NCBI GenBank assembly: GCA_021776275.1 | Contig: JAJFGH010000097.1 | Coordinates: 1-38,365 of the forward strand | Source: Alphaproteobacteria bacterium | GTDB taxonomy: Bacteria > Pseudomonadota > Alphaproteobacteria > GCA-2746255 | Direction: 5' to 3' | DNA: 38,365 nt | Shown: piece by piece, positions 15,216 through 35,914 of the stretch | How positions within the stretch are numbered: position 1 is the stretch's first letter | How the letters are laid out: every line of letters begins with the position of its first letter | Translations under genes and position numbers: made by a program | The notes under the pieces: generated by a model | The model's database searches: none | Seen by the model: only the letters and a program-made list of their open reading frames with translations | Told to the model about the DNA's origin: nothing

Positions 15216-15788
15216 TTATTTAAACCGCTTGCACTCGCGCGCGCCCTCGCCCCAGAAATCCGCACATTGGGCCTTCGTTATGTCGCCCTTCTCTTTGATC
15301 TTGGCGATGACATAGGCCGCCACCCGGGCAATGTCGGCGTCGCTTAGACGTTTCGCCGGCTTTGGCGGTTTGTCCTCGCCAAGCTCGGCCGCCGTCATGC
15401 CATAACAGTCGTAGCCCTTATAGGCCTTGCGATGAAAAGCGGGCATGCCGGTGCCGGGGCGGCCACAGGCAACCACTTCGACCAGATATTCTTCCGTCAA
15501 AATCGTCTCGCGCAGCGAAAGCGCCGCGCCGCCATACCCGCCGCCGCCGCCGCCATGCCATTTGTGGCAACCGACGCAATTTGCCTTTTTGTAAACCTGC
15601 TTGCCGCGATCCAGATCGGAACTGGCGCCGCCTTCGGCCAGGGCCTCGCCTGCCGCCGGCGCCGTTTCGGAAAGTTCCGCCGCCGTGGAAGCGCTTGGCT
15701 CCAGCTTTCCTCCAAACCAAAGCACGCTCAACATGCCGCAGGCCAACAACACGGCGACGAAAGAGGGAAGAAAAGTGCGAAAATTCAT
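15216..15788 (-). CDS. Monoheme c-type cytochrome, likely electron acceptor of the adjacent PQQ dehydrogenase
   Basis: Signal/TM N-terminus, CVGCH heme motif, GRPGTGMPAF distal Met, four further Cys in the mature domain. Confidence 0.88.
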   Translation of the reverse strand: MNFRTFLPSFVAVLLACGMLSVLWFGGKLEPSASTAAELSETAPAAGEALAEGGASSDLDRGKQVYKKANCVGCHKWHGGGGGGYGGAALSLRETILTEEYLVEVVACGRPGTGMPAFHRKAYKGYDCYGMTAAELGEDKPPKPAKRLSDADIARVAAYVIAKIKEKGDITKAQCADFWGEGARECKRFK

Positions 15789-15845
15789 GGCGGGCGTTTC
15801 CTTAAATCTTAATGGGCTTGCTATGGGTCAGTTTAACACGGCCCA

Positions 15846-15887
15846 AAATAAAAAGGGGTGCTCCGCCTTTTCGGCGAAGCACCCCTT
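15846..15887 (-). terminator. Intrinsic terminator downstream of the PQQ dehydrogenase
   Basis: aaggggtgct-ccgcc...ggcg-aagcacccctt inverted repeat with an A-tract on + (U-tract on -). Confidence 0.75.
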
Positions 15888-15909
15888 CCCCCCTGAACCG
15901 TTCAAGCCG

Positions 15910-17709
15910 CTACGGCAATGCGAAGATGAAAAGCATGCCGCCTGGCTTTATCTTTTCCAGCCCCTTGGTGCCATCGACGAACCATTTCGGCCAGGCGCCG
16001 CCCAGACCAACGGCCAGCGCCACATATTGCTTTCCGTCCACCTCATAGGTGACCGGAGGCGCGTTGATGCCGGCCCCGGTTTCGAAACGCCACAGCTCGT
16101 CGAGCGATTTCCCGTCCAGCGCCACCAGGGCCCCTTCCGGATAGCCGACAAAGACCAAATCGCCGGCCGTCGCCAGAACGCCGCCCAGCATCGGATAGAC
16201 GGTTTCCTGCTTGGCGGCGACCTTGCCGGTCGTCACGTCAACCGCCGTCACGCTGCCGGTAATCGGCTGAAACTGCTTCGGCCCGCCGCCGGTGAACCAT
16301 TCCCGATATTTATGGCTGCCCGGCTCGACCGGCTGGTTGTCGATCTGGTTGCAGCTTTCGATCACCGGAATGTAGACGAGCTTGCGCTCCGGGTTGTAGG
16401 CCATCGGCGGCCAGTTCTTGCCGCCCATATTGCCGGGGCAGGTGCGGCCCGTCTTGTCTTCGCGGGTCGGCGCCGTGCCGGGTTCGTATTTCTGAACATC
16501 CGCATTCGGATCGTAAGAGTTCGGCCGGCCCGTCTTGGGGTCCAGCCCCTTCGTCCAGGTTACCTTTTTGACGAACTGGGTCGCCCACTGGAATTTTCCG
16601 GACTGGCGGTCGAAGGCATAGAGATAGCCGTTGCGATTGGCATGGAGCGCAAGCTTTTTCGCGCCATCCCCTTCCTCAAGATCGACGAGGATATGCTCGG
16701 AAACCGAATCGTAATCATAGGGATCGTTCGGCGTGTATTGGAAATGCCATTTGATTTCGCCGGTCGTCGCATCCAGCGCCAGCACGCTGTTCGTATAAAG
16801 ATTGTCGCCGGGACGATAGGCGTTGTCCCAATCGGGGCTTGGATTGCCGACACCCCAATAGAGGAGGTTCAACTCGGCATCATAGGAACCCGTCACCCAG
16901 GTCGGCCCGCCGCCAGTTTTCCACGCTTCGTGGCTGTCCTTCCAGGTCTCGTGGCCGGGCTCGCCCGGCGCCGGCACCGTATAGGTGCGCCACATTTCCT
17001 TGCCGGTCATCAGGTCCGTCGCCGCCAGCCAGCCGCGAATTCCATATTCGCCCCCGGCAACCCCGGTGATGGCCATGTTCTTGACGATCAAAGGCGCCGC
17101 CGTAATCGTTTCGGATTTGTCGGGATCGGCAATCGTCCGCTCCCAGAGAAGTTCGCCGGTTTTCTTGTCGAGAACCAGCAGACGGCCATCGAGAACGTGG
17201 GAAACCACCTTGTCTTTCCAAAGGGCAACGCCGCGATTGTTCACCCCGCAACAGGTGACGTTGCCGGCCCAGTCGCGATCGATTTCCGGGTCGTATTGCC
17301 AAACGAGTTTCGGCTGGCCTTTGCGAACGTCGTATTTGTAGACGGTCCCCCAACCGTCGGGGATATACAAATAGCCGTCTTCGACGATGGGCGTCGCCTC
17401 ATGGCCGCCATGGGGCCAGATGCCGCCCGCCTCGACGCCGCCAAGGACTATCGTGCCGGTAACCTGCAATTTTTTAATGTTCTTGCGGTTGATGTCGTCC
17501 AGACGGGAGAAACGATGGGCGCCGTAATTGCCGTGATGGGTGATCCAGTTTTCCGGCTCCCGATAGGCGTTCATGAGCCGTTCGTTGGTTACCTGTGCGC
17601 TGGCATCGTTCCGCTGACCGCTCTCGACGAAGAGGGCGAGCGCCAAAAGAACGCCGCCGACGCCCACCAGAATCCAGGGCCATTTCTTTGCGCTTGTCTC
17701 CAATTTCAT
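15910..17709 (-). CDS. PQQ-dependent alcohol dehydrogenase family protein, probably lanthanide-dependent
   Basis: Signal peptide, vicinal CC (TCCGVNNRG), GGEYGIRG, WGVGNPSP, TPNDPYDYDSVSE, CPGNMGGKNW, Trp-docking propeller repeats, C-terminal GKQYVA. Confidence 0.93.
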   Translation of the reverse strand: MKLETSAKKWPWILVGVGGVLLALALFVESGQRNDASAQVTNERLMNAYREPENWITHHGNYGAHRFSRLDDINRKNIKKLQVTGTIVLGGVEAGGIWPHGGHEATPIVEDGYLYIPDGWGTVYKYDVRKGQPKLVWQYDPEIDRDWAGNVTCCGVNNRGVALWKDKVVSHVLDGRLLVLDKKTGELLWERTIADPDKSETITAAPLIVKNMAITGVAGGEYGIRGWLAATDLMTGKEMWRTYTVPAPGEPGHETWKDSHEAWKTGGGPTWVTGSYDAELNLLYWGVGNPSPDWDNAYRPGDNLYTNSVLALDATTGEIKWHFQYTPNDPYDYDSVSEHILVDLEEGDGAKKLALHANRNGYLYAFDRQSGKFQWATQFVKKVTWTKGLDPKTGRPNSYDPNADVQKYEPGTAPTREDKTGRTCPGNMGGKNWPPMAYNPERKLVYIPVIESCNQIDNQPVEPGSHKYREWFTGGGPKQFQPITGSVTAVDVTTGKVAAKQETVYPMLGGVLATAGDLVFVGYPEGALVALDGKSLDELWRFETGAGINAPPVTYEVDGKQYVALAVGLGGAWPKWFVDGTKGLEKIKPGGMLFIFALP

Positions 17710-17984
17710 GGAGGACCTCCCCATCCTAACTGTGTTTTTTTGCCCCCGGCCGGGCCGGTCTTTGTCTTTGGGTTCTCATGATGCCGCCTTCTCGATGAAC
17801 TGCCAAGCTCCTTTTCCGGGCTGGAAAATCGTTGCGTTTCCGCGATTTTTTTCAGACCTGGCCTGGCCCAAACGGCGCAATTTTCGGTTGATGCGGGAGG
17901 GGTGCTGCCCCACACTCCCCTGGCTTCGCCGGGCCTTTTAAGCCGCGCCAGGCAGAAAAAATAGACGTTCAAACGAGGAACCCC

Positions 17985-19787
17985 ATGAACCGACAGCAGC
18001 GCCGACAGCAGGCCCGCCAATCGCGGCAAAAGGAAAGCCAGCCCCAGGGCGGCGACGGCTTTTCGGACCAGCGCCTGGACGACGCGCTTCGCCTGCATCA
18101 GCGCGGCGAGTTGGAGCGGGCGGAGGCGATTTACCGAAACGTGCTGCGCCAGCAGCCGGATCATCCGGACGCGCTGCATCTTCTTGGCGTTCTCCGTCAC
18201 CAGCGCGGCGCCAGCGAGGAAGCCCTTGGCCATATCGAACGCTCCCTTGCGGCGAAACCGAAATCGCCGGACGCCACCTACAACCTTGCCGACGTCCTGC
18301 TTTCCCTGGGAAGAACGGCGGAAGCCATTCAGCATTTTCAGAGCGCCCTTTCGCTGCGCGCCGATTTTCCCGAAGCGCAGATCAGCCTGGGCGTTGCCTA
18401 CCGCGCCGCTGGCGACATGGAAAAGGCTCTCGACCAGCTTCGCGAAGCGGCGGCAAAACATCCGGATTATGCCGAAGCCCATTACAACCTTGGCGATACG
18501 CTGCGCATTCAGAACGATTTTACCGGTGCCAAGGCCGCCTTTGAAAAGGCACTGGAAGTTCGCGCCGATTTTTCCGAGGCCGAAAACAACCTCGCCACCA
18601 TCTTGCGAAACGAAGGCGACATCGAAGGCGCCGCCCGGCATATCGAAAACGCGCTTCGCATCAACCCCGACTTCGCCGAGGCCCACAACAACCTTGGCAA
18701 TATCCGAAAGTCGGAAGGCGCCATCGAGGACGCAATCCCGCATTTTGAACAAGCGGTTCGTTTGCGCCCCGATTTTACCGAAGCCCATTACAATCTGGGC
18801 AATGCCTATCTGGCGACGGGCCGGGTCGACGCGTCCGCCGATGCCTTCAAGAAGGCGCTTGTTCTAAACCCGGATCTTGAAAACGCGCGCGGCGGCCTTT
18901 CCGAGGCCCAGCAACGCCAGGTGCCGCGCTGGCATTTTGCCATGATGAACGACCGCGCCCGCAACGAGGCGTACGATCAGGCCATTCGGAAAAGCGTGAC
19001 GGAAAATGCCACCGTTCTAGACATCGGCGCGGGCGGCGGCCTGCTTTCGATGATGGCCGCGCGCGCCGGCGCAAAGCATGTCTATGGGTGCGAAACCGTA
19101 ACGCCGATCGCAGACATGGCCACCCGCATCGCCGCCGAAAACGGCCTGGCCGAGCGCATCACCATCCTGCCAAAACATTCCTACAGCCTGAAAATGGGCG
19201 AGGATTTGCCCGAGCCCGCCGATCTGCTGGTGACGGAATTGTTAAACGCCGGTTTTCTTGGCGAGGGAATCTTGCAGGTGATCCAGCATGCGCGTGCGAA
19301 TTTGTTGAAGCCCGACGCAAAGATCGTCCCGAGGGGCGGCACGGTTTATGCCATGTTGATCGAAAGCGCAGAATTGGTTGAAGAAGACCGGGTCAACGAC
19401 GCCGCCGGATTCAACGTGCGCCCCTTCAACGAATTCGCAAGCGCCGAATATCTGACAAAGCGCCTGAACGCCTACCCCCACAAAATTCTTTCCGACTCGG
19501 CGGAAGTCTTTTCCTTCGACTTTCTGGACGCCCGGCCAATGCCCGAAACGAAGGAAATTTTGGTCCCGGTCACCGCCGACGGGCTTTGCCACGGGGTGTT
19601 GTTATGGTTCCGGCTGAACCTGACGGACGAAATTTCCCTGGAAACGAAGCCGCGCGCCGAAGACACCCATTGGCACCAGGCAATTTATCTCGAAGAAACG
19701 CCAAGGCCGTTGCACAAAGGCGAGAACGCCCGCCTTTCGGCGAGCCATGACTGCCGTTACATCTCGTTGAAACTGGCATCTGACTAA
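17985..19787 (+). CDS. TPR-repeat protein fused to a PRMT-like (protein arginine methyltransferase) domain
   Basis: About 8 TPRs (AEAHYNLG repeats), then RWHFAMMNDRARNEAY, VLDIGAGGGLLSMMAARAGA, VYGCE, DLLVTELLNAGFLGE, LLKPDAKIVP, HGVLLWF, THWHQ. RBS GAGGA. Confidence 0.85.
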   Translation: MNRQQRRQQARQSRQKESQPQGGDGFSDQRLDDALRLHQRGELERAEAIYRNVLRQQPDHPDALHLLGVLRHQRGASEEALGHIERSLAAKPKSPDATYNLADVLLSLGRTAEAIQHFQSALSLRADFPEAQISLGVAYRAAGDMEKALDQLREAAAKHPDYAEAHYNLGDTLRIQNDFTGAKAAFEKALEVRADFSEAENNLATILRNEGDIEGAARHIENALRINPDFAEAHNNLGNIRKSEGAIEDAIPHFEQAVRLRPDFTEAHYNLGNAYLATGRVDASADAFKKALVLNPDLENARGGLSEAQQRQVPRWHFAMMNDRARNEAYDQAIRKSVTENATVLDIGAGGGLLSMMAARAGAKHVYGCETVTPIADMATRIAAENGLAERITILPKHSYSLKMGEDLPEPADLLVTELLNAGFLGEGILQVIQHARANLLKPDAKIVPRGGTVYAMLIESAELVEEDRVNDAAGFNVRPFNEFASAEYLTKRLNAYPHKILSDSAEVFSFDFLDARPMPETKEILVPVTADGLCHGVLLWFRLNLTDEISLETKPRAEDTHWHQAIYLEETPRPLHKGENARLSASHDCRYISLKLASD

Positions 19788-19805
19788 CGGCGGACCGCCG
19801 CCACC

Positions 19806-20636
19806 TCAGACAATGTCGCGCAAGCGCGCAAGCGCGTCTTCGCAAGTGGCATAGCGAAGGCGATAGCACGTGCCCGCTTTTGCGATCTGCAAAAGCCGGC
19901 TTACCTTTGCTTCCGCATCGATGCTTTGGGTAAAATTTCGCCGCATCAAATCGCGCAGCACGTCGCTTTTACCGATCGGCTCAAGGGAAGCAGCGCCGCG
20001 CTCGACGCGCTCGGGCAGCACGATTGCCGCAATCGGCGCCGTCGCGCCAAAACGGGCCATCTCGCCGGGCCGGAGCCCGACAAATTTTCCGTAACCATTG
20101 CCAAGCACGTCGCGATCATCGAGAAAGGCGCGAAAGCCCGCCGTCACATTCGCGGGCAATGGCAGGCGGAGTCTGGGCGCCACGCCCAAGGAAACACCAA
20201 GCCCCGCATCGTCTTGAATGGCCAGCACATCGTCGGTGAAAAGAAGCGCGCCCGCCGCCGCGCCATGAACCGCCAGGGTGCTTTTTCCCGCCTTGCCGCT
20301 GGCCGGAAAGACGAAAAGGCCGTCTCCCATTTTCAGCGCCGCCGCATGAATACAGAGCAGCTCGGGATTGGCGGCAATGAAGGCGGTGTAAAGCTCGGCG
20401 AAAAAACCCGCGATGGCCTCGTAGCGATCCACATAATCATGGGACGTAAAATGATGGACACGGGTTTCGACGCGGTACCCTGTCTGGGTCCGCGCAAGGG
20501 TCAGGACCGAATCCGGCGCTGCCGTCTCCAAAATTGCGTGGGGCCAGGTTGAAATTGGCGGGCACAGAAAGGGAAGAAGCGGATCGCACCCTAAAATGGA
20601 AACGGGCGCGGGCACCCCTTCAAAGCGAAACAGCAT
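19806..20636 (-). CDS. HPrK-related (HPr-rel) serine kinase
   Basis: CIHAAAL, Walker A ASGKAGKST, LFTDD di-aspartate: the HPrK/PEPCK fold signature. The flanking segments differ from canonical HprK. Confidence 0.8.
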   Translation of the reverse strand: MLFRFEGVPAPVSILGCDPLLPFLCPPISTWPHAILETAAPDSVLTLARTQTGYRVETRVHHFTSHDYVDRYEAIAGFFAELYTAFIAANPELLCIHAAALKMGDGLFVFPASGKAGKSTLAVHGAAAGALLFTDDVLAIQDDAGLGVSLGVAPRLRLPLPANVTAGFRAFLDDRDVLGNGYGKFVGLRPGEMARFGATAPIAAIVLPERVERGAASLEPIGKSDVLRDLMRRNFTQSIDAEAKVSRLLQIAKAGTCYRLRYATCEDALARLRDIV

Positions 20637-20677
20637 GATGGGTCAAAACCAGAGCGCGCCGACGATGGAAAACGCGA

Positions 20678-20959
20678 TCAGCTTGGCCGCGATGGCCTGC
20701 TTGGGCCGGAGGGCCCGCTTGGGCCACTCGGTCCACTCGGGCCGGAGGGCCCGCTTGGACGGGAGGGCCGCGTCGGCCCGCTTGGGCAGGGGCCGCCTTT
20801 GCCTTTGCCCTTGCCGCAGGGAGAAGGCTTGATCTTCGCCATGGCGCTGCCATCAAGATGCAGCAGCACCGGCGCCGTATATGCGATGGCCGCGCCAATT
20901 CCAAGACGGGTCAGCGCCTTGCGGCGGTTTACGATTTTTTCTTTCGAGATTTGGCCCAT
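20678..20959 (-). CDS. Small Tat-signal / RiPP-precursor-like peptide with a Pro-Ser triplet repeat tail
   Basis: NRRKAL twin-Arg, hydrophobic LGIGAAIAYTAPVLL, SAMA cleavage site, then KIKPSPCGKGKGKGGPCPSGPT(RPS)2(GPS)6(RPS)2-stop. RBS AAGGGA. Start ATG 20959 or TTG 20965. Confidence 0.8.
   Translation of the reverse strand: MGQISKEKIVNRRKALTRLGIGAAIAYTAPVLLHLDGSAMAKIKPSPCGKGKGKGGPCPSGPTRPSRPSGPSGPSGPSGPSGPSGPSRPSRPS
20681..20788 (-). repeat. Twelve 9 bp degenerate coding repeats (x-Pro-Ser/Thr)
   Basis: Codons read one by one; synonymous codons vary between units while the amino acid pattern is strict. Confidence 0.9.
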
Positions 20960-21120
20960 CTTCAATCTATCCCTTGTCCGAACCCGGCCTGCTTACGAAA
21001 GGTGGCGCCGGCCCGGCCTTTTTTCAAGGCCCCTAAAGCATAGGCCGTTTCGGGCATGAAGAAAAGTTTTGCCGCGAAATTTGGATTTTCCAACAGGAAT
21101 ATCAAATGGTTAAGTAGATA

Positions 21121-22245
21121 TTACGGCGCCGCCTTCACCAGCGCGTAGACCAGCTCGATGACCGGCGCGCCATATTCGCGCCGCAGTACCTCCTCCCCCG
21201 CCGCCGCGATCGAAAGACGATCCTGGATCACGCCGGGCAGGTAATCCGGATGGTGCGCGTACCGGCCGGACGCCTGCAAGGCAAAGCCGGGCGCCTGCCC
21301 CTTTTCAAGGCTTAGCAGAAAAAATCCGCCCGGCCGCAGCGCATCGGTCGCCGCCGCCATCACGGGCGCGAGGTCGCCTATATAGACGAGGGAATCGCAA
21401 GCGATCATAAGGTCGAAGCATCCGGCCGGCATGCCGGCCAGAAAGGCCGTCGCCTCGGCGAGGTGCAGTTGCTCATAAACGGCGAGCGCTTTTGCCTGCG
21501 CAAGCATTTTCGGCGAAAGGTCTACGCCCGCCAGGCTTTTGGCAAGCCCTCGAAATTTTTTTCCGGCCAGGCCCGTGCCGCAACCGATATCGAGAATGTC
21601 AAAACGGGTTTTCCGCTTGCCGATCGCACGCTTGGCATAATCGAAGAGAACGTCCGGCCCGCAATAATCCAGGTCTTTGCAAAGATGCGTGTCAAAGGTG
21701 CCGGCATAATTGTCGAAATAATGCTTCACATAGGCTTCCGGTGCGCGCGACGGGGCGTCGGCGCCGCCAAGGGCGGCGATCATGTAGCGCGCATCGCCGT
21801 CCCGCGGATCAAGCTCCAGACAGCGGCGGTAACAGCGCAGCACATCTTCCGGACGCTTTAGGTAACTGTAGCTTTCGCCAAGCCGCCAATGGGCCTTCCG
21901 GTAATCCGGCTGCAACGCGATCGCGCGCTCAAAGAAAGAGGCCGCGCGCCCATGCTCGCCCTCCGACGCCAGCGCCTTTCCAATCGCATAGGCGTTCTCC
22001 GCCTCCAGCGCCATCCGTTGACAATGGGTGGCGGACGCCCCTTCCCCGTCGCCTTCCGCCTCCAACAATGCTTCCAACCCCTCCAACGCGGCGAGGTGCT
22101 GGGGCATGGCCTGTAAAAGTTCGCGATAAAGGGCAATTGCCCGCTTCGGCCGGCCAGCTTTTCGGTGCTGTTCGGCAAGATGGTAGAGGCGCGTTGCCGC
22201 CGCGGTCGCCCCGCCCGCTTTTCCCGAGGTAGCCCTTGACGCCAT
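21121..22245 (-). CDS. TPR-repeat SAM-dependent methyltransferase (COG4976-like)
   Basis: N-terminal TPRs, then APEAYVKHYFDNYAGTFDTHL, LDIGCGTGLAG, GVDLSPKML, DSLVYIGDL, SGRYAH. RBS GAGGGG. Confidence 0.88.
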   Translation of the reverse strand: MASRATSGKAGGATAAATRLYHLAEQHRKAGRPKRAIALYRELLQAMPQHLAALEGLEALLEAEGDGEGASATHCQRMALEAENAYAIGKALASEGEHGRAASFFERAIALQPDYRKAHWRLGESYSYLKRPEDVLRCYRRCLELDPRDGDARYMIAALGGADAPSRAPEAYVKHYFDNYAGTFDTHLCKDLDYCGPDVLFDYAKRAIGKRKTRFDILDIGCGTGLAGKKFRGLAKSLAGVDLSPKMLAQAKALAVYEQLHLAEATAFLAGMPAGCFDLMIACDSLVYIGDLAPVMAAATDALRPGGFFLLSLEKGQAPGFALQASGRYAHHPDYLPGVIQDRLSIAAAGEEVLRREYGAPVIELVYALVKAAP

Positions 22246-22264
22246 CGGCGCCCCCTCGCTTTTC

Positions 22265-23740
22265 CTATTTCGCGATCCGGGTGATGGTGGCGCTGGTGCT
22301 CTGACCGGGAACAATTTCGGCCAACAGAATTTGGCCGCCATAGCTTTTCACAAAATCCCCGCCGACCACTTCGTCCTCCCGGTAATCCGCCCCCTTTACC
22401 AGCACGTCCGGGCGAAGCGCCTTCAAAAGGCGCACGGGCGTGTCCTCCGTAAAGATGACGACGAGATCCACGTCGGCGATCGAGGCCAGCACCGTCGCCC
22501 GGGCCATTTCCGCCTGCACCGGCCGTTCGGGCCCTTTCAGGCGCGCAACCGAGGCGTCGCTGTTCAGGCCGATGATCAGCCGGTCGCACGCCGCTTTTGC
22601 CTGACGCAGCAGCGCGACGTGGCCCGGATGCAGCAAATCGAAACAGCCATTCGTAAAGCCGATGCGAAAGCCCTGCCGCCGCCAGCGCGCGACGGCGTCG
22701 TTCGCCTGTTCCAGTGAAACGCAGGCATCGGCGCTTTCAAGCAAATCGCGCTCGTGCAGCCCCGCGACAAGATCGTCCGGATGGACGACGGCGGTGCCCA
22801 CTTTTCCGACAACGATGCCGGCGGCAACGTTCGCAAGATAGGCCGCGTCTGAAATGGAGGCGCCGCCAGCAAGGGCGGTGGCAAGGGTGGCCAGCACCGT
22901 GTCGCCGGCTCCGGAAACGTCGAAGACTTCGCGCGCCCGCGCCGACAGATGCAGCGCCTCTTTTCCTTTCGTCACCAGCGTCATGCCAGCAGCGCTTCGC
23001 GTAACCAGAATGGCGTTCACGCCGACGGCTTTCAGTAATTTTTCCGCCGCCGCGACGATCTCTTCATCCGTTGCAACCGGCAACAAGGTCGCCTCGTGCA
23101 ATTCGCGCAAATTTGGCGTCAGCAGCGTTGCCCCACGGTAGCGGTCGTAGTCGAAACCCTTCGGATCGATGACAACCGGCACCTTCGCTTTTTTGGCCAG
23201 GTCAAGGATACGCTTTGCCATGTCTCCGACCAGAAGCCCTTTGCCGTAATCGGAAAGCAGCAAAACATCCGCCGCCTGAAGCGCCTCTTCGATACCACCG
23301 AGAAGTTTTCCGCGCGCCAAATCGCCAAGGGAAACCAACGTCTCGTGATCGGCCCGCAGAAGCTGCTGGCTTGCCGCGACAAAACGGTTCTTGATCGTCG
23401 TCCGGCGGCCTTCCTCGATGACGACGCCGTCATTGGCGGAACCCGATGCGTGGACAAGTTCGCGCAGCTCGTTTCCGGCCGCGTCGTTGCCGACGACCGA
23501 AAAGAAACGCACCTCTGCCCCATATGCCAAGAGATTGCGGAGCACGTTCCCGGCACCGCCAAGAACCGTCGTTTCGCGGCACACATGCAGCACCGGGATG
23601 GGCGCTTCCGGCGAGACGCGCTCGACATCGCCATAAACGAAGCGATCAAGCATGACGTCGCCAACGCAGACCACGCGGGCACCGCGAAAAGATTCCACTT
23701 CGGCTGCGAAGGCAGGCGCGTCACCCGTTTCCTTGCTCAT
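22265..23740 (-). CDS. hldE: Bifunctional heptose-7-phosphate kinase / heptose-1-phosphate adenylyltransferase
   Basis: GDVMLDRF, RVSPEAPIPV, SDYGKG, DVSGAGDT (PfkB) plus FTNGCFDLLHPGH, LVKGADY, STSATI. Confidence 0.96.
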   Translation of the reverse strand: MSKETGDAPAFAAEVESFRGARVVCVGDVMLDRFVYGDVERVSPEAPIPVLHVCRETTVLGGAGNVLRNLLAYGAEVRFFSVVGNDAAGNELRELVHASGSANDGVVIEEGRRTTIKNRFVAASQQLLRADHETLVSLGDLARGKLLGGIEEALQAADVLLLSDYGKGLLVGDMAKRILDLAKKAKVPVVIDPKGFDYDRYRGATLLTPNLRELHEATLLPVATDEEIVAAAEKLLKAVGVNAILVTRSAAGMTLVTKGKEALHLSARAREVFDVSGAGDTVLATLATALAGGASISDAAYLANVAAGIVVGKVGTAVVHPDDLVAGLHERDLLESADACVSLEQANDAVARWRRQGFRIGFTNGCFDLLHPGHVALLRQAKAACDRLIIGLNSDASVARLKGPERPVQAEMARATVLASIADVDLVVIFTEDTPVRLLKALRPDVLVKGADYREDEVVGGDFVKSYGGQILLAEIVPGQSTSATITRIAK

Positions 23741-23744
23741 CTTC

Positions 23745-24338
23745 CTACTCCTCGACGAGGCCGAGTTCCTGCTCCAACGCTGCGCACAGCATATGGCCAA
23801 GCATAATATGCATTTCCTGAATGCGCGACGTACGGTCGCTTGGGACAAGCAACAAGGGATCGGCCAGCCCCTTCAATTTGCCCCCGCCCTTGCCGCCGAA
23901 CGCCGCCGCGACAAGGCCCATCTCCCTGGCTTGCTCCAGGCCGAGCAGGACGTTTTTGCTTTGGCCGGAGGTGCTGATCCCGATAGCGACGTCGCCCGGC
24001 TTGCCGAGCGCCTCCACCTGGCGCGCAAAAAGCGCATCGAAGCCAAGGTCGTTGCCGATCGCCGTCAGCGCCGAGCTGTCCGTCGTCAGCGCGATCGCGG
24101 CAATGGCCTTGCGATTTTTCGAAAAGCGGACGACCAATTCCGTCGCCAGATGCTGGGCATCAGAGGCGCTGCCGCCATTGCCGAAGAAGAGAAGCTTGCC
24201 ACCTTCGCGGATCGCTTGCGCCGAGCGTTCGAGCAGGCTGCAAAAGGCCGCAGAAAGGGCTTGTTCCGTCGCCGCGGCGGTCGCGGCATGCTCGGCGAAT
24301 TCCGCCGCATAGAAGGCGTTTAAATCGAGTTTTATCAT
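23745..24338 (-). CDS. gmhA: D-sedoheptulose-7-phosphate isomerase
   Basis: GNGGSASDAQH, LTAIGND, FARQVEAL, ISTSGQS, RIQEMHI; ATGA overlap with the upstream gene. Confidence 0.95.
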   Translation of the reverse strand: MIKLDLNAFYAAEFAEHAATAAATEQALSAAFCSLLERSAQAIREGGKLLFFGNGGSASDAQHLATELVVRFSKNRKAIAAIALTTDSSALTAIGNDLGFDALFARQVEALGKPGDVAIGISTSGQSKNVLLGLEQAREMGLVAAAFGGKGGGKLKGLADPLLLVPSDRTSRIQEMHIMLGHMLCAALEQELGLVEE

Positions 24339-25099
24339 GAGCTGAAACGTCCACTCCCCGGTCCCGTTTTGGAAAAAAGAGTGTACCAGATAAAGAGGCT
24401 GTTCGTGACCAGATAGCGCTTCCAAAGGCGCCCCGGCTCCGCGCACAACCGAAACAGCCATTCCAGGCCGGCCGCCTGCATCCAGTGCGGGGCGCGGCGG
24501 ACCGTGCCGGCGAGAAAATCAAAGGCGGCGCCGACGCCCACCAGGACGCCCGTGAGATGGGGCGCGTAGGCCGCCATCCAATATTCCTGCTTCGGACAGC
24601 CAAGGCCGACAAAGACCAGACCGGCGCCCGTGGCGTTGATGCGGGCAACCGTCTCGGCGTCTACCGCCGGCTCAAGGGGCAGCGCCGGCGGCGCCTCGAT
24701 ACCGGCAATCCGGAGCGTGGGAAAATGCATTTCCAACACCTGGCGCAACGCCGCCGCCGTCGCGGCATTGCCGCCGAAAAAATAAACCGGCACCGCCGCC
24801 GCCGCGGCTTTTGCCAACAGGCGCGCCGTCAAATCGGGTCCGGCGACGCGGCCCGCCTCGCCATAGCCTTGGCGCCGCAAGGCCCAGACCAGGGGCATGC
24901 CGTCGCTGGTTACCCAAAACGCGCCCTCCATGGCGGCCCGCAGGCGGCTGTCCTTTCTTGCCGTCGTCACCATGTGCACATTGGCGACGCAGACATAGCC
25001 GCCTTTCCCCGCCTTGGCCGCCTCCAGAATCGTTTCCGTGGCACCGGCAAGGTTCCCCACCGTCACCGGCGCCCCGACGACGTTTCCCCTAGGCTTCAA
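24335..25099 (-). CDS. WecB/TagA/CpsF family glycosyltransferase
   Basis: ANVHM, DGMPLVW, RVAGPDL, VGLGCPKQE, GVGAAFDF, GLEWLFRL..EPGRLWKRY; TTG start with a GGAGG RBS. Confidence 0.93.
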   Translation of the reverse strand: MKPRGNVVGAPVTVGNLAGATETILEAAKAGKGGYVCVANVHMVTTARKDSRLRAAMEGAFWVTSDGMPLVWALRRQGYGEAGRVAGPDLTARLLAKAAAAAVPVYFFGGNAATAAALRQVLEMHFPTLRIAGIEAPPALPLEPAVDAETVARINATGAGLVFVGLGCPKQEYWMAAYAPHLTGVLVGVGAAFDFLAGTVRRAPHWMQAAGLEWLFRLCAEPGRLWKRYLVTNSLFIWYTLFSKTGPGSGRFSS

Positions 25100-26078
25100 C
25101 GCCGCCCTCCCGGTATTTCCGCTCCCAGTTGAACGCCGTCTCGACGATGAAACGCAAATTGTCGTGTTTTGGCTGCCAGCCAAGGGCCGCCCGGATGCGC
25201 GACGCGTCGGCCACCAGCGCCGGCGGGTCGCCCGCCCGCCTTGGCCCTTCCGCAACGGTGAAATCGATACCGGATACCTGCTTCACCATCGCGACGACCT
25301 CGCGCACGCTGGCCCCATGGCCATAGCCGCAATTGAGAACGAGGCCCTCGCCGCCCGCCGCCAAATGGTCGAGGGCGGCGCGATGGGCCGCCGCCAGATC
25401 CGACACATGAATGTAATCGCGCACACAGGTGCCATCCGGCGTCGCATGGTCGGTGCCGAAAAGTTCAATTTTCGGGCGAACGCCGAGGGCCGCCTGCAAG
25501 GCGAGCGGAACAAGATGGGATTCCGGATCGTGGGCTTCGCCAATCCTGGCCTCCGGGTCCGCCCCGGCGGCATTGAAATAGCGCAGGATGACGCAACGCA
25601 AATCAGATGCGCGGGCCGCGTCCTGCAAAATCCGTTCGCTCATCATCTTGGAAGCGCCGTAAGGATTGATGGGAAGCAGGGCTGCATCTTCGGAAACTTT
25701 TTCCCCCTCCGGCAGGCCATAGACCGCCGCCGTCGAAGAGAAGACAAAATGTTTGACGCCGAAACGGACGCAGCGCGCAACCAGGGCCAGCGTGTTTTGC
25801 GTATTGTTCCGGTAATATTTCAACGGATCGGTAATGGATTCGGCAACTTCGATATGGGCAGCGAAATGCACGACCCCATCGAACGCGTTTTCCTGAAAAA
25901 GCGCGTCCATCGCCGCGTCGTCCGCCAGGTCGGCGACCACCAACCTGCCGGCAAGCACCGCCCAAGGGTGGCCCGCCGAAAGATTGTCGACGACAACCAG
26001 ATCGTGGCCGGCCGCGGCCAGCTCCAAAACCGTATGGCTGCCGATATAGCCCGCGCCGCCCGTTACCAATAGCCGCAT
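25089..26078 (-). CDS. galE: UDP-glucose 4-epimerase
   Basis: VTGGAGYIGSH, FSSTAAVYG, PYGASK, LRYFNAAGA, DGTCVRDYIHV. Confidence 0.95.
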   Translation of the reverse strand: MRLLVTGGAGYIGSHTVLELAAAGHDLVVVDNLSAGHPWAVLAGRLVVADLADDAAMDALFQENAFDGVVHFAAHIEVAESITDPLKYYRNNTQNTLALVARCVRFGVKHFVFSSTAAVYGLPEGEKVSEDAALLPINPYGASKMMSERILQDAARASDLRCVILRYFNAAGADPEARIGEAHDPESHLVPLALQAALGVRPKIELFGTDHATPDGTCVRDYIHVSDLAAAHRAALDHLAAGGEGLVLNCGYGHGASVREVVAMVKQVSGIDFTVAEGPRRAGDPPALVADASRIRAALGWQPKHDNLRFIVETAFNWERKYREGGVEA

Positions 26079-26088
26079 GCTGCTCCCC

Positions 26089-27279
26089 CTACACGCGCGC
26101 CGCGCGGCTCCCCTTACACGCGCGCCGCGCGGCCTCGTAAATTTCCATCAGGCGCACATAGTTTACGTCCGCCGTGTAGTTTTTCGCATACGCCTCTCGG
26201 GCATGGGCGCCCATGGCCGCCATGCGTTGCGGGTTGGCCGCCGCGAAGCGCACTTTCTCGGCCAGATCCGACGCGTCCCCCGGTGTGAAATGCAGGCCCG
26301 TTTTTCCGTCTTCCACGATTTCCGCCATTGCCCCCAATTTCGATGCGATCACCGGCAGCCCGGCCCGAAAGGCTTCCAGCAACACCATTGGGAAACCTTC
26401 GTACCATTCCGAGGGCAGCACAAGAAAGGTGGCACGGCCCATTTCGCCGGCGATCGCCGCCCCAGGCAGCGCGCCGGCGGCATCGATCCAATCGCCCTTG
26501 CGGCGGCGAACCGTTGCCAAAAGCGGCCCTTCGCCGACCAGCCGCAGCGGCACGTCCAAGCTCTCCCAGGCGTCGAGCAGGGTGCCAAGCCCCTTCTCCG
26601 GGCTTAGCCGCCCGACGAAAAGGCCGCCGCGACGACCCGCGGCATGCTCGACCGCCGCGCGATCATCGGGAAGAAAGTTTGGCTTTACCTGAATGTGCGC
26701 CGCCGGCAAACCGCCCTCGACGAATTTTTGCTTGGCAAATTGCGTCAGCGCAATGAAACGGTCTGGCCGCGTTGCCCAGGTGTCCCGTTTCCGGTGATAG
26801 GAAACCATGCGCGCGACGGCAAAAGACCCCGGTTGCGAGCCGCGATAGCAGCCATGCAGAACGGCCCGGTAGGGCGAACGGTGAACGCATTCCTCGCAAA
26901 TTTGGCCGTCGCGATAAAGCGTCGCCGCCGGACAGATGAGCCGGTAATTGTGCAGCGTCATCACCGAAGCAATGCGCGCGTCCCGGCAGGCATCGAAAAT
27001 GGACGGCGTCAGAAGCGGAAAGAAATTATGCACATGCACAAGGTCCGGCGCATGTTCCGCCAGCGCCTTCGCCATCTGCCCCCGGGCCCTCGCCGAATAG
27101 GGCGCGGCCAGCGCCGTTTGCAAGGCCCCAAGCGGGCCCTGAATGGCGGCGTTGGCAATCGTAAATTCCCGAACCTCCTGCCCGTTGCCTTCCAGCAACG
27201 CCCGCTCATTGGCGAACACGGCGTCTTCGCCGCCGGCTTGCCGGTAAAAATTATGAACGAGCAGAACGCGCATGGGCAT
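26089..27279 (-). CDS. Glycosyltransferase family 4
   Basis: HNFYRQAGGE, HVHNFFP, FVGRLSPEKG, WYEGFPMVLLEA. Confidence 0.93.
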   Translation of the reverse strand: MPMRVLLVHNFYRQAGGEDAVFANERALLEGNGQEVREFTIANAAIQGPLGALQTALAAPYSARARGQMAKALAEHAPDLVHVHNFFPLLTPSIFDACRDARIASVMTLHNYRLICPAATLYRDGQICEECVHRSPYRAVLHGCYRGSQPGSFAVARMVSYHRKRDTWATRPDRFIALTQFAKQKFVEGGLPAAHIQVKPNFLPDDRAAVEHAAGRRGGLFVGRLSPEKGLGTLLDAWESLDVPLRLVGEGPLLATVRRRKGDWIDAAGALPGAAIAGEMGRATFLVLPSEWYEGFPMVLLEAFRAGLPVIASKLGAMAEIVEDGKTGLHFTPGDASDLAEKVRFAAANPQRMAAMGAHAREAYAKNYTADVNYVRLMEIYEAARRACKGSRAARV

Positions 27280-27437
27280 TGCCCCGAAAGAGGTCGCGAA
27301 GCGGCCGTCTGGCCACGAAGGGGGCCTTCAACTTCGCCCGAAAATGCAAGGAATAATGCAAAACGATGCCCCTGAAGACGGGAATTATCCCCCCCAATGA
27401 AGCTCCTGCCTAGCCCCGATATGGCCTAAATCCACCG

Positions 27438-28172: not shown

Positions 28173-28243
28173 CGGGCGGCAAGGAACGCCGCTATTTGTT
28201 ATAGGCTTAGCGCCGGGCCCTTTGGACTCAAGGACATTCCTTG

Positions 28244-29410: not shown

Positions 29411-29461
29411 CACTTGTTCGCTCGCGAACACAGCATCCTTGCCCCCACCTGTTGGCAAAAA

Positions 29462-34846: not shown

Positions 34847-35914
34847 TTATCCGGGGGGCAAACCGCCATAGGGACGAACCAGACCACGCAGCCGGCGCCA
34901 ATTGCGATAGAGGCCAACGCGCAAATCCGTCGCCAGAAGAAGCTCGCGGCGCAACGTGCGCAAATGCCCGGGCCCGGTCGGGAAAAGGGTTTCGTAATCG
35001 CGGACCAGGCGCGCAAATTCGCACGCCGGAAGCCCGCGAAAAGGCCGCAGCAGGCCCACAGGCGCGGGCCCGAGCCTGCCGCCAAGCCGTTCCAGCAATT
35101 GGAGAAAGCTTCTCGCCGCCCGGCAAAGCCGCCCCTGGGTCACCAGCGCCTCGAGCCGCTCCCAATCCAGCTCCTCCGTGCGTTCCAACATGCGAATCGC
35201 ATCGACGCTCTTGCGCACGCTTGCCGGCCCGAAGGCGCCCTTCGCCGCGTTCGTCAAACTAAGAAAAAAGTGATGCTCCGGAGAAGGCACGCGCAGGCGC
35301 AAGCCGTCGATTTCCAGCCGGCGCGATTCGGAAAAAACGGCCTCCGTCGAAAGTGAAAGCGTGGCCGGGTAGGCATCGGGCGCGATGTGCAAATCGAGAT
35401 TGGCGCTGGCATCTTCGGAAACGAAGGGCAGAAAGCTGACATCGGAAATAAACCCCCAGGGCGAACGCGCCTCGCCGCGAAAGCGAAAACCGTGGCCGGA
35501 GAGAAAATGAATAAGCGCGTCCAGATCCTTCGCACGAAGCAGCAGATCCAGATCGCCAATCGTGCGCGCGTCCGGATCGTCATAAAGGCTGTGCGCGCTG
35601 GCAAATCCCTTTATGTAAACGACATCGAACCCCGCCTCGCCGATCTTGCGCACCCAGTGCAATTGGCTATGCCGCAGAAACCGGTTGTACAGAAGCCCCT
35701 TATCGGCCAGCTCCGGATCGATCCATTCGCGCTTCAGCTTGGCCGCGGCCGGACGCAACAATTCGCGCGCAAGGGCTGGCGAAAGAAGGTCCGCAAACCG
35801 CCGCAGCATGGCGGGCGTCGCTGCCGAAACGTGCCGCTCCGCCGCCTCCGGGCATGTGACAAGCGTCCAGAACTTGGCTGCCACGTTGCTTGTACTTTCT
35901 TGCGATTGCGACAA
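34847..35914 (-). CDS. Nucleotidyltransferase family protein (NTP_transf_5-like)
   Basis: YIKG...LYDDPDARTIGDLDLLL (KG...R..GDxD), then LDLH and LRVPSPE. Confidence 0.8.
   Translation of the reverse strand: MSQSQESTSNVAAKFWTLVTCPEAAERHVSAATPAMLRRFADLLSPALARELLRPAAAKLKREWIDPELADKGLLYNRFLRHSQLHWVRKIGEAGFDVVYIKGFASAHSLYDDPDARTIGDLDLLLRAKDLDALIHFLSGHGFRFRGEARSPWGFISDVSFLPFVSEDASANLDLHIAPDAYPATLSLSTEAVFSESRRLEIDGLRLRVPSPEHHFFLSLTNAAKGAFGPASVRKSVDAIRMLERTEELDWERLEALVTQGRLCRAARSFLQLLERLGGRLGPAPVGLLRPFRGLPACEFARLVRDYETLFPTGPGHLRTLRRELLLATDLRVGLYRNWRRLRGLVRPYGGLPPG

Follow-up and report, generated by a model that had tools for sequence, protein, structure and literature searches.

We predict that a small open reading frame (ORF) in the window (the whole 38,365-nucleotide stretch of alphaproteobacterial DNA that we analyzed) encodes the precursor of a ribosomally made, modified, and exported peptide, and that the neighboring gene codes for an HPrK-like kinase acting on this peptide. 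We put the probability of this at about 0.62. In the proposed mechanism, a PqqD-type RiPP recognition element (RRE) would bind the Y-x-x-P-x-L stretch of the peptide's leader. This element is part of the kinase in most relatives and, in the genome of the window (G000), would be a separate protein encoded on contig C72 beside an ABC-2 exporter. The kinase would then phosphorylate a serine or threonine of the core, with Ser46, in a conserved P-[ST]-P-C motif, as the best candidate. The leader would do double duty: its twin-arginine, hydrophobic, and AxA part would direct both export (through Tat or else the associated ABC-2 transporter) and leader cleavage by signal peptidase. A TPR-methyltransferase and a more distant nucleotidyltransferase, NTP_transf_5, are probable accessory tailoring enzymes.

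The precursor gene is on the minus strand at 20678..20959 and encodes 93 amino acids from the ATG at 20959, or 95 amino acids from a TTG at 20965 (ORF 20678-20965). Its stop codon is at 20678-20680, and an AAGGGA-type purine stretch lies ~10 nt 5' of the ATG. The kinase gene (276 amino acids; 19806..20636, minus) is downstream, with 41 nt between the peptide's stop and the kinase's ATG. On the plus strand, a gene for a 600-amino-acid TPR protein resembling the methyltransferases PRMT9 and PRMT7 (17985..19787; Pfam PRMT_C and PrmA) converges on the kinase, and the two stops are 18 nt apart. A TPR protein with a class I SAM methyltransferase domain (406 amino acids; 21121..22341, minus; Pfam Methyltransf_11 at 2e-14 plus TPR) is encoded upstream of the peptide. 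The original prediction had placed these four genes and both gaps correctly, as we confirmed from the sequence.

In the leader (residues 1-41, numbered from the ATG; 20837..20959, minus), a twin arginine (R12-R13) is followed by a hydrophobic stretch with Y27-x-x-P30-x-L32 and then by an AxA site (A39-M-A41). R12, R13, G20, Y27, P30, and A41 are invariant in an alignment of 15 diverse homologs, as are R4, G12, Y19, and P22 of a 34-column leader alignment of 51 sequences; the Y and P of Y-x-x-P are invariant in both. The 34-column profile matches 870 representative proteins at E ≤ 1e-3. Even with a threshold of E ≤ 10, the peptide was not matched by the curated models for Tat signals in Pfam and NCBIfam. 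G000 has TatC.

The predicted core (residues 42-93; 20681..20836, minus), by direct reading, has K42-I-K-P45-S46-P47-C48, a G/K loop, C58, and 12 x-P-S/T triplets, including four RPS units (the run spans residues 58-93; 20681-20788, minus). Cores with this "two-Cys" pattern, [IV]-x-P-[ST]-P-C-x(6-13)-C, are also encoded in G042, G312, G044, G108, G289, and two metagenome contigs (L145 and L154). No hydroxyl residue other than the S/T of P-[ST]-P-C is common to all two-Cys cores seen, and Ser46 is our best candidate for the acceptor, rather than the repeats or the C-terminal Ser. In paeninodin-type lasso peptides, the phosphate acceptor is a C-terminal Ser, and the original prediction had proposed the same here. 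But C-terminal Ser is not conserved: it is the last residue in just 8 of 79 predicted cores, and the genus orthologs end otherwise. Nor do the x-P-S repeats seem to be an essential target, as had been suggested, since the kinase-adjacent copy in another species of the genus (G002) has no repeats. Repeat number and type vary among the genus orthologs. In relatives, the predicted cores have a median of 80 and up to 206 residues and are of low complexity (24% G and 21% S). Such long, low-complexity cores are unlike most RiPPs.

For the kinase, structural modeling confirmed the original assignment to the HPrK/PEPCK fold, and both the P-loop and the DD motif are intact. Foldseek searches with the AF2 model (pLDDT 88.3, pTM 0.87) found PEP carboxykinases (TMq about 0.5) and the HprK/P chains 1kkl_B and 3tqf_A (TMt 0.47-0.50), and the GKS(T) and DD motifs align with those of Hpr(Ser) kinase 3tqf. 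H97, G117-K-S-T120 (the P-loop), and D135-D136 are invariant among homologs. A Pfam search gave no match. The best curated-model matches for the kinase and its relatives are TIGR04352 (HprK-related kinase A; 8e-12 and 44.8 bits for the window's kinase, with a cut-off of 200) and TIGR04355 (HprK-related kinase B). At 27-47 bits, far under the 200-bit cut-offs, the kinase family lies outside these models.

The link between the peptide and the kinase is strongly supported by gene neighborhoods and genome content. (Related genomes are non-independent samples in these counts.) First, among 80 kinase loci from other species, 74 have at least 400 bp of upstream sequence; a co-oriented leader ORF lies at most 1.5 kb upstream of the kinase in 64 of these 74, which is a detection count and not an independent test because the leader profile was built from kinase-adjacent ORFs. 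At five further loci, the leader ORF is divergent or 1.9 kb away. Both strands of 1.52 Mb of kinase flanks contain 23 further leader matches, which are extra precursors or S8 peptidases with the same leader. All 23 are in the neighborhood of the kinase: 21 are within about 2 kb, and the others are at 2.9 kb (L085) and 4.4 kb (L066).

Second, across 401 genomes of the class, we found the leader in 31 and the kinase in 47. By hand intersection of the lists, a kinase match is present in 28 of the 31 leader-positive genomes, versus 19 of 370 leader-negative genomes, and the two genes are adjacent in 14 of the 28. The exceptions are three leader-positive genomes with no kinase match (G146, G185, and G254) and four strong kinase matches with no leader match (G089, G173, G248, and G378). 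Third, the leader profile matches just 1-3 ORFs each in G042, G312, G132, and G400, and these ORFs adjoin the kinase or the TPR-methyltransferase, or sit at a contig edge (G400). The pairing extends across many genera, and the original prediction rightly ranked this link above those to the methyltransferases.

In 66 of the 80 loci, a PqqD segment is directly 3' of the kinase and fused to it (Pfam PqqD at 4.2e-7 in one example). The window's kinase does not have this C-terminal domain. G000 has a discrete PqqD (Pfam, 5.8e-9), which shares 55% identity with the copy in the G022 cluster and 43-46% with the copies beside the G042 and G312 kinases. This candidate RRE is on a different contig than the window. 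The ABC-2 exporter travels with the kinase or PqqD in G022, G042, G312, and G173, so export may be by a route other than Tat. The predicted complex of PqqD with leader residues 1-52 weakly supports binding: it scored 0.40, versus 0.01 for the best of three controls, with at least 60% contact agreement between runs and a partner pLDDT of at least 49, but RRE-leader complexes have already been solved, so this pass may come from the predictor's memory of such structures. (Of 80 solved complexes, 58 reached the mark, as did 2 of 110 mismatched pairs; just 7 of the 80 reached it with a score of 0.60 or less, and so did both passing mismatches.) A report on the linear polyphosphorylated peptides (LPPs) that Bacillota make (Popov et al., Nat Commun 2026; PMC13381572) gives [Y/W]xxPx[L/V/I/F/A] as the motif to which the RREs of lasso and LPP systems bind.

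Alternatively, the peptide could be an ordinary exported low-complexity protein of the envelope or matrix; the kinase would have a different substrate (for example, another protein, a sugar, or a lipid-linked intermediate), and their adjacency would reflect co-regulation and block inheritance. We consider this unlikely, although the genomic context gives it some appeal. By annotation and synteny, the peptide-kinase system is in a conserved, EPS-type exopolysaccharide/heptose island (Wzz/GNVR, Wzy_C, Bac_transf, glycosyltransferases, GmhA, and HldE), and inheritance of the island as a block means that some adjacency is shared ancestry and not function. HldE (22265-23848, minus; Pfam PfkB and CTP_transf_like) and GmhA (23745-24461, minus; Pfam SIS_2), both of the ADP-heptose pathway, travel with the two-Cys peptide. 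HldE is single-copy in G000. In G312, G289, G108, G044, and L154, about 3 kb or less separates it from the leader peptide. Two other conserved members of the shared island, identified with Pfam, are a metallophosphoesterase (35924-36694, minus) and a Bac_transf initiating sugar transferase (36808-38307, plus), whose orthologs in the G312 island and in the corresponding islands of G042, G108, and G044 are 48-53% identical. The NTP_transf_5 protein (34847..35914, minus; PF14907 at 1.7e-24) is syntenic in these same four islands. Its homologs adjoin the kinase in G022, G132, and G400 (48-52% identical in G022 and 38% identical in the other two), but it is found at 0 of the 80 kinase loci and only in the two-Cys/island subtype. 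As originally expected for a RiPP-like system, both PqqD and NTP_transf_5 are in the genome, yet PqqD is unlinked and NTP_transf_5 is 14 kb from the peptide locus.

Also, a single contig holds both the kinase and the peptide in 8 genomes, but with 25-215 kb between them, and PEP carboxykinase, which is a small-molecule kinase, has the HprK fold too. But most of these kinases are fused to a peptide-binding domain, and the leader keeps the RRE-binding Y-x-x-P invariant. Furthermore, the minimal conserved unit at most of the 80 loci is just the peptide and the kinase-PqqD, and polysaccharide genes are not among the recurrent neighbors. Finally, the characterized HprK-like kinases of this branch phosphorylate peptides, as stated in the LPP report (PMC13381572).

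The original prediction was broader than ours: the kinase, the PRMT-like enzyme, and the TPR-methyltransferase would all modify one peptide before Tat export (by phosphorylating Ser and by methylating Arg in the RPS units and Lys in GKGKGK). This now seems quite unlikely. All three genes do flank the peptide in the window, G004, G005, and G002, and the inter-Cys loop is rich in K, R, and G in the window, G042, and G312. Also, the PRMT-like gene is in 45 of the 401 genomes, with 11 of 31 leader-positive versus 34 of 370 others by hand count, but the genus itself accounts for 4 of the 11. Its identity was correctly called (PRMT_C at 1.1e-13), and its closest solved structures are eukaryotic PRMT9 (5e-55 and 1.1e-53) and PRMT7, with a further value of 1.2e-47. 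PRMT9 also has N-terminal TPRs followed by a PRMT module; unlike PRMT9 and PRMT7, the window's protein is bacterial and has a single PRMT module. Outside the genus, however, this gene is never next to the kinase, and neither the leader peptide nor the kinase is at any of 10 PRMT-like loci from other genera, which leaves its membership in the system unsupported. It is on another contig or megabases away in G042, G044, G312, and G369. In G001, the peptide and kinase persist although the TPR-methyltransferase is missing and an extra 446-amino-acid ORF lies between the kinase and the PRMT-like gene. Most two-Cys cores have no RPS units, and neither does the copy beside the kinase in G002.

The link to the TPR-methyltransferase is moderately supported by its neighborhoods. 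It adjoins two-Cys peptides in G022, G042, G312, G289, and two metagenome contigs (L145 and L154), and leader peptides within the genus (G004, G005, and G002); its five best matches outside the genus are all in kinase-positive genomes. But it is missing from G001, G108, and G044, and the family is broad (84 of 401 genomes, mostly without the peptide system). It is a probable accessory enzyme of the two-Cys subtype.

Tat proofreading chaperones of the TorD/DmsD/NapD type are cytoplasmic proteins that stay bound to a twin-arginine signal peptide until its cargo has been completed. By analogy, the kinase-PqqD might hold the precursor or regulate its export, with the P-loop as an ATP-dependent switch and no modification of the core, but we consider this very unlikely. 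The PqqD partner would indeed bind within a signal-peptide-like leader. At 12 of the 80 loci, an S8 peptidase bears the same leader, so the leader could be a general sorting signal for several cargoes and not a RiPP leader, and ECF sigma factors are near the system at 10 loci by tblastn or 16 by clustering. The folds are unrelated to those of the chaperones. Here, a PqqD/RRE would do the binding, and maturation would consist of phosphorylation. However, the catalytic P-loop and DD motif are invariant, and the cores are strongly enriched in Ser (median 22%), with Ser among the first six residues in 64 of 79. Also, the kinase's relatives are proven peptide kinases (PMC13381572).

On sequence evidence, the small ORF is a real gene, because its leader codons change mostly synonymously (36 codons across five species of the genus; 15 synonymous versus 4 non-synonymous changes between the window and G005) and because it is the sole match to the leader profile in six frames of the 1.70-Mb genome (E = 8e-14, with no second match at E ≤ 10). 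Although the local G+C of about 0.62 gives many spurious ORFs and the tail is a simple repeat (whose codons vary at synonymous positions), a chance open frame is effectively refuted by this divergence, by the ORF's conservation in position and orientation at all four intact loci of the genus (kinase-adjacent in G001, G002, G004, and G005), and by the 870 proteins sharing the leader.

Finally, we compared the proposed system to known ones. Phosphorylated lasso peptides of the paeninodin type share the HprK-like kinase, RRE, NTP transferase, and [Y/W]xxP leader motif, as described in PMC13381572 and PMC8498205. We found no macrolactam cyclase or B2 peptidase among the annotated ORFs of the window at 15.2-38.3 kb or among the recurrent neighbors of the 80 kinase loci.

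As described in the LPP report (PMC13381572), LppK is an HprK-like kinase of Bacillota that adds phosphates to Ser3 of a linear core. Its gene cluster, located in capsule loci, also encodes an RRE, a leader peptidase of the signal-peptidase type, and an NTP transferase. On that description, the two systems share an HprK-like kinase with a PqqD-type RRE, an NTP_transf-type enzyme, signal-peptidase-type leader removal (predicted for the proteobacterial peptide), and polysaccharide loci. In both, the precursor is linear (one to three genes per cluster), its N-terminal leader is conserved and includes Y-x-x-P-x-[VL], and its C-terminus is hypervariable. They differ in host phylum (LPPs are said there to be restricted to Bacillota), and the proteobacterial leader resembles a twin-arginine signal peptide with an AxA site. 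We saw no dedicated SipW-like peptidase or MsbA-like pump in the proteobacterial system; its RRE is mostly fused to the kinase's C-terminus, its predicted cores consist of repeats rich in Ser, Gly, Arg, and Pro and reach about 200 residues, and NTP_transf_5 is confined to the two-Cys/island subtype. The original prediction had called the system undescribed. That holds for the proteobacterial form, on which our literature search found no paper, but not for the related family in Bacillota. The closest known system, by these comparisons, is LPP of Bacillota, and the proteobacterial form would be a widespread and apparently undescribed relative with a signal-peptide-like leader and a kinase-RRE fusion.

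The window spans all of contig C180, which belongs to an alphaproteobacterial MAG of 1.70 Mb with a completeness of 89%. The precursor peptide, of 93 amino acids, is encoded on the minus strand at 20678-20959 (ATG at 20959). The gene for the HPrK-like kinase (276 amino acids; no Pfam match and a weak NCBIfam match) lies at 19806-20636 on the same strand. A 600-residue protein with TPRs and a PRMT-like C-terminal half is encoded on the plus strand at 17985-19787, and a 406-residue protein that combines TPRs with a class I methyltransferase is encoded on the minus strand at 21121-22341 (both from ORF calls and Pfam). The gaps of 41 nt between peptide and kinase and of 18 nt between kinase and PRMT-like gene are both as originally stated. 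Counting from the ATG at 20959, the leader has the pair R12-R13, a hydrophobic stretch with Y27-x-x-P30-x-L32, and A39-M-A41. The core begins with K-I-K-P-S46-P-C48 and continues with a Gly/Lys loop and C58. The tail consists of twelve x-P-S/T triplets and ends at the C-terminus.

The small ORF is a real gene. In each of the four genus members whose locus is intact (G001, G002, G004, and G005), a peptide orthologue immediately precedes the kinase gene on the same strand. Within the genus, third-position changes dominate in the leader codons (for example, 15 synonymous versus 4 non-synonymous changes in 36 codons), while the tail repeats vary freely in type and number. When the leader profile was compared to all six frames of the window's own genome (G000), the peptide ORF was the sole match (8e-14), with no others at E ≤ 10, so the leader is not a generic signal peptide. 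The peptide has no family name from Pfam, NCBIfam, or a protein search (13 matches at E ≤ 0.01). A promoter and terminator scan of 17700-22600 found sites to be no more numerous than in shuffled sequences, and a look-up of RNA data sets that contain 19700-21200 listed none. G002 has two more peptide copies, located between the TPR-methyltransferase and the copy next to the kinase (locus L023, 10150-10960, minus strand). One of these has no in-frame ATG, GTG, or TTG ahead of the AxA site, and in the other the leader and the core are in different frames. These extra copies may be pseudogenes or assembly errors in repeats.

The original prediction linked the peptide to the kinase and to both methyltransferases, and the link to the kinase holds up well in other genomes. 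We scanned for kinase loci with one genome per species, using the smaller kinase alignment A2 (A1 was too diverse), and found 216 relatives, of which the best 80 were fetched (L030-L109). Six of these 80 have less than 400 bp of upstream sequence and are outside the count. A leader-bearing ORF lies at most 1.5 kb upstream of the kinase, and co-oriented, in 64 of the other 74 loci; since the leader profile derives from the same loci, this is a detection count. Four more loci (L032, L033, L034, and L072) have a divergent leader ORF just upstream of the kinase, and L035 has one 1.9 kb upstream. Among the assessable loci, five (L044, L046, L052, L083, and L093) have no leader ORF. The remaining 23 leader matches are also near the kinase (21 within about 2 kb, L085 at 2.9 kb, and L066 at 4.4 kb) and belong either to a second precursor or to an S8 peptidase that shares the leader.

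For a more independent test, we used 401 genomes sampled evenly across the class, of which 31 have the leader and 47 have the kinase (including G244, a genome flagged as unpublished). The kinase was matched in 28 of the 31 leader-positive genomes versus 19 of the 370 leader-negative ones, counts in which related genomes are non-independent samples. Most of those 19 kinase matches are weak (1e-9 to 1e-13). Three leader-positive genomes (G146, G185, and G254) have no kinase match.

The leader defines a large family. A 34-column leader profile has 870 matches at E ≤ 1e-3 among 1.84 billion representative proteins, and of the best 150 of these, 148 are at most 200 amino acids long and carry the leader N-terminally. 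Family members come from Proteobacteria and from some MAGs labelled Desulfobacterales. The R, G, Y, and P of the leader are invariant in 51 sequences, and Y27 and P30 are invariant among the aligned homologues, while the cores are hypervariable. The cores are low-complexity repeats of several kinds (x-P-S, S-Y-S-R-P, S-F-S-R-R, G-G-S-G-G, or K-S-G-K-S). In 79 parsed cores, the median length is 80 and the composition is 24% Gly, 21% Ser, 10% Arg, and 7% Pro. A Ser is among the first six core residues in 64 of the 79, given a crude cleavage-site call that could be off by a few residues. The C-terminal Ser had been proposed as a phosphate acceptor, and we reject this, as Ser ends only 8 of the 79 cores. 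The x-P-S repeats had also been proposed as the target. They are not an essential target in the two-Cys subtype (peptides that have [IV]-x-P-[ST]-P-C-x(6-13)-C after the AxA site), as the kinase-adjacent copy in G002 has zero x-P-S repeats.

Other features recur in parts of the family. An S8 peptidase with the same leader is a neighbor in 12 of the 80 loci (L055, L060, L063, L065, L070, L074, L076, L082, L086, L087, L094, and L097). This subtilase is about 430-440 amino acids long (Peptidase_S8, 2.5e-28 for L094), has a short Ser/Arg-rich linker after the leader, and stands upstream of a small precursor and a kinase-PqqD gene. An ECF sigma factor is another recurrent neighbor (10 of 80 loci by tblastn, 16 of 80 by clustering). 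In Rhodobacterales (such as L069, L071, L073, L078, and L089), a conserved C-terminal module of about 25 residues, with two Cys, is found on many x-P-S cores. Cores from Halomonas and Vreelandella end in a conserved hydrophobic tail with R-W.

The kinase is related to HprK, as was predicted. It matches NCBIfam's HprK-related kinase A (TIGR04352) at 8e-12, with 44.8 bits relative to a cut-off of 200. In a sequence profile search of the PDB, its P-loop and the DD after it align with Hpr(Ser) kinase (3tqf). A confident AF2 model built from ten homologues (pLDDT 88.3, pTM 0.87) matched both PEP carboxykinases and HprK/P in Foldseek. H97, G117-K-S-T120, D135-D136, and R157 are invariant among homologues down to 28% identity. 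NCBIfam reported no HprK/P equivalog for the window's kinase, and a kinase paralogue from G022 scored 42.6 bits against TIGR00679 (cut-off 240). Among the family's proteins that were searched (the window's kinase and relatives), none reached a curated NCBIfam cut-off. Most homologues of the kinase are about 400 amino acids long and include Pfam's PqqD, which the alignment places at the C-terminus.

PqqD-type recognition elements (RREs) and NTP_transf_5 had been suggested as markers of the neighborhood, and the results for the two differ. A PqqD segment directly follows the kinase in 66 of the 80 loci, but NTP_transf_5 is near the kinase in none of the 80, although its homologues adjoin kinases in G022, G132, and G400. 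The window itself has NTP_transf_5 (PF14907) at 34847-35914. We found no RRE within the window, and G000 holds two PqqD genes elsewhere. One is in the pqqBCDE operon, on contig C155. (A PQQ-dependent alcohol dehydrogenase (PF01011, 1.5e-67) is encoded in the window at 15216-17724, on the minus strand, with an adjoining cytochrome c; this pair is syntenic with the peptide-kinase locus in all four genus relatives.) The other is a discrete PqqD of 105 amino acids on contig C72 (Pfam, 5.8e-9), which adjoins an ABC ATPase/ABC-2 permease and a HlyD-type protein. Its identity is 55% with the PqqD located between the kinase genes of G022, and 43-46% with the kinase-adjacent PqqDs in G042 and G312, and the same ABC ATPase (57-64% identity) is alongside PqqD in all three genomes. 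A predicted complex of the C72 PqqD with leader residues 1-52 scored 0.40, while the highest of its three controls scored 0.01. The runs share at least 60% of their contacts, with a pLDDT of 49 or more for the partner. Of 80 solved complexes, 58 attain the mark for this score, as do 2 of 110 mismatched pairs, but only 7 of the 80 attain it with a score of 0.60 or less, and both of the mismatches that pass lie in that range. Since similar complexes are solved, the pass may reflect structures memorized by the predictor. This prediction lends weak support to binding.

The closest parallel that we found is with the linear polyphosphorylated peptides (LPP) of Bacillota. Phosphorylation by HprK-like kinases was known from lasso peptides before linear ones were described in 2026, in a report that gives both LPP and paeninodins as restricted to Bacillota (PMC13381572). 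In LPP, the HprK-like kinase LppK puts several phosphates on Ser3 of the core; the other parts are a discrete RRE, a SipW-like leader peptidase, an MsbA-like pump, and an NTP transferase, and the clusters are often within capsule loci. The leader of LPP precursors is conserved (YxxPxVLxHQ...), their C-termini vary, and the motif for binding the RRE is [Y/W]xxPx[L/V/I/F/A] (PMC13381572). The proteobacterial family is similar in its HprK-like kinase, RRE, leader motif, variable core, and polysaccharide context. In the window, the precursor has Y-x-x-P-x-[VL] in its leader and a variable core, and PF14907 is the NTP transferase; the C72 PqqD is the candidate RRE. There are also differences: the proteobacterial leader is shaped like a twin-arginine signal peptide and has an AxA site; kinase and RRE are mostly a single fused protein, whereas the RRE of LPP is discrete; the NTP transferase is absent from the 80 loci of the wider family; and there is no dedicated peptidase or MsbA pump among annotated ORFs or recurrent neighbors. 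Specifically, neither a SipW-like signal peptidase I nor an MsbA-like exporter is among the annotated ORFs at 15.2-38.3 kb, or among neighbor clusters present in at least 7 of the 80 loci (as judged from representatives, partly checked with Pfam). The window's annotated ORFs and the recurrent neighbors also include no lasso macrolactam synthetase (C) or B2 leader peptidase. The likeness to LppK, LppB, and paeninodin proteins is by description rather than by sequence comparison. We found no description of the proteobacterial family in the literature searched, whose scope leaves out most subscription journals.

We propose that the RRE binds Y-x-x-P-x-L in the leader, as the motif, the kinase-PqqD fusion, and the weak model suggest. 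The kinase would phosphorylate a Ser or Thr of the core, which is consistent with its fold, its intact catalytic residues, and the precedent. The best candidate for the acceptor is Ser46, because, among hydroxyl residues, only the S/T of P-[ST]-P-C is shared by every two-Cys core seen. (The core from G289 has a single Thr and the core from G108 has a single Ser.) Export and removal of the leader would then proceed via its signal-like part. We consider this mechanism as a whole to be the most likely one, with a probability of about 0.6.

For the export step, direct reading of the peptide found the features of a Tat substrate: an RR motif, a moderately hydrophobic h-region, and an AxA site. In the leader alignment of 51 sequences (A5), every row has the first Arg (R4) and at least 90% have the second (R5); A41 is invariant in a 15-row alignment (A4). 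TatC is present in G000. However, no Pfam or NCBIfam family, including the curated models of Tat signals, matched the peptide or five family members at E ≤ 10. The exporter associated with the system is of the ABC-2 type, and it would be an alternative route to Tat.

The upstream TPR-methyltransferase was also predicted to act on the peptide, and this link stands in part. The enzyme belongs to a broad family that is present in 84 of the 401 class genomes, and 69 of the 84 have no kinase match. It is beside the kinase in only 2 of the 80 loci, both from the same genus. But the five best matches outside the genus (G022, G132, G042, G400, and G312) are all in kinase-positive genomes, while the next eight are not. 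In G042, the genome's only leader peptide is directly upstream of the TPR-methyltransferase, with the kinase, PqqD, and ABC genes 36 kb away. The gene order in G312 is GmhA, HldE, three leader peptides, and the methyltransferase, with the kinase 37 kb away; in G289 it is HldE, peptide, and methyltransferase. Contig C10 of G022 has the methyltransferase, a peptide, a TPR-2OG oxygenase, the kinase, a bactofilin, a second methyltransferase, and NTP_transf_5. Among 80 metagenome loci of the methyltransferase family, two (L145 and L154) have a peptide and then the methyltransferase. The peptides adjacent to the methyltransferase are all of the two-Cys subtype, with [IV]-x-P-[ST]-P-C-x(6-13)-C after the AxA. 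On the other hand, the methyltransferase is not beside the peptide in G001, G108, or G044. We regard it as a putative accessory enzyme that often accompanies the two-Cys subtype but can be dispensed with. The oxygenase from G022 (L025, 1602-2765, plus strand) has TPRs fused to a 2OG-Fe(II) oxygenase domain (PF13640, 1.5e-16) and its gene has a Pro-rich two-Cys leader peptide on one side and the kinase, followed by the bactofilin gene, on the other. It is a candidate peptide hydroxylase and a third kind of TPR-fused enzyme in these clusters.

The system's setting is polysaccharide biosynthesis. In the window, 22265-38307 encodes HldE, GmhA, a WecG-type glycosyltransferase, an epimerase, two GT4 glycosyltransferases, two methyltransferases, Wzy_C, a TagD-like cytidylyltransferase, a TagF-like CDP-glycerol glycerophosphotransferase, a 421-residue membrane protein with no Pfam match, NTP_transf_5, Metallophos, and Bac_transf. 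HldE, which is single-copy in G000, is probably a housekeeping enzyme. Between 30 and 33 kb the G+C content is lower, at 0.48-0.51, a hint that a glycerol-phosphate module was acquired there. Comparing ORF by ORF, the window shares an exopolysaccharide-type island of 30-40 kb with G312, G042, G108, and G044. The island includes the kinase (with PqqD and ABC genes), Wzz/GNVR, Wzy_C, Bac_transf, a BTLCP peptidase, a PAS-HD protein, a metallophosphoesterase, NTP_transf_5, an epimerase, GT4 and GT2 glycosyltransferases, GmhA, HldE, and one or more leader peptides, with or without the TPR-methyltransferase. In G312, G042, G108, and G044 the island has the kinase at one end and the peptide at the other, whereas in the window's genus they are side by side and the PqqD and ABC genes are on another contig. 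Inheritance of the island as a block therefore explains part of the synteny. The BTLCP (Peptidase_C93) and PAS-HD_5 proteins in G312 (L223, 5243-8188) have counterparts in G108, G044, and G042; we take this pair, as in LapG-type systems, to point to surface regulation linked to cyclic-di-GMP.

The Bacillota clusters likewise lie in capsule loci, a striking resemblance. In another reading, the peptide is a ribosomally made primer or anchor rather than an end product. Its conserved Ser or Thr, once phosphorylated by the kinase, would be extended into a peptide-linked glycopolymer, a bacterial "proteoglycan," that is exported via the leader. The extending enzymes would be NTP_transf_5, HldE/GmhA, the TagD/TagF-like genes, glycosyltransferases, and Wzy/Wzz. 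If true, this would explain why this system and the LPP and paeninodin clusters of Bacillota are found in polysaccharide loci. We consider it improbable.

The 17985-19787 gene is, by its sequence relatives, a genuine bacterial relative of PRMT9 and PRMT7 with a single PRMT module that has both the catalytic and the oligomerization subdomain, as predicted: it matches PRMT_C at 1.1e-13, and PRMT9 and PRMT7 are its best solved relatives (5e-55 to 1e-47, over domain residues 3-285). The combination of TPRs and PRMT mirrors the architecture of PRMT9. Co-localization does not back the further claim that it acts on the neighboring peptide: none of 10 PRMT-like loci outside the genus have the kinase or a leader peptide nearby, and we reject that link. 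The PRMT-like gene is present in 45 of the 401 alphaproteobacterial genomes (including G045, flagged as unpublished), mostly as ORFs of 500-600 amino acids. The only hint of a link is its enrichment at the genome level, in 11 of 31 leader-positive genomes versus 34 of 370 others, with the genus itself contributing 4 of the 11. In G001, an extra ORF of 446 amino acids lies between the kinase and the PRMT-like gene (L024, 9973-11310, minus strand), and the TPR-methyltransferase is gone. Heptosylation of the peptide by a GT9 enzyme was also rejected: the sole GT9 match in G000 is on contig C126, and the single HldE copy probably has a housekeeping role.

Alongside LPP, the Proteobacteria have a large family, probably a sister one, in which the leader occurs in at least 870 clusters at 50% identity. 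The RiPP leader and the secretion signal appear to be one sequence, and kinase and recognition element are most often fused into a single polypeptide, which gives a minimal two-gene system. If confirmed, this would widen genome mining for RiPPs to leaders that resemble signal peptides, which are now discarded as ordinary secreted proteins. It would also be a new coupling of cytoplasmic modification to export, and it would tie peptide phosphorylation to exopolysaccharide biology in two phyla.
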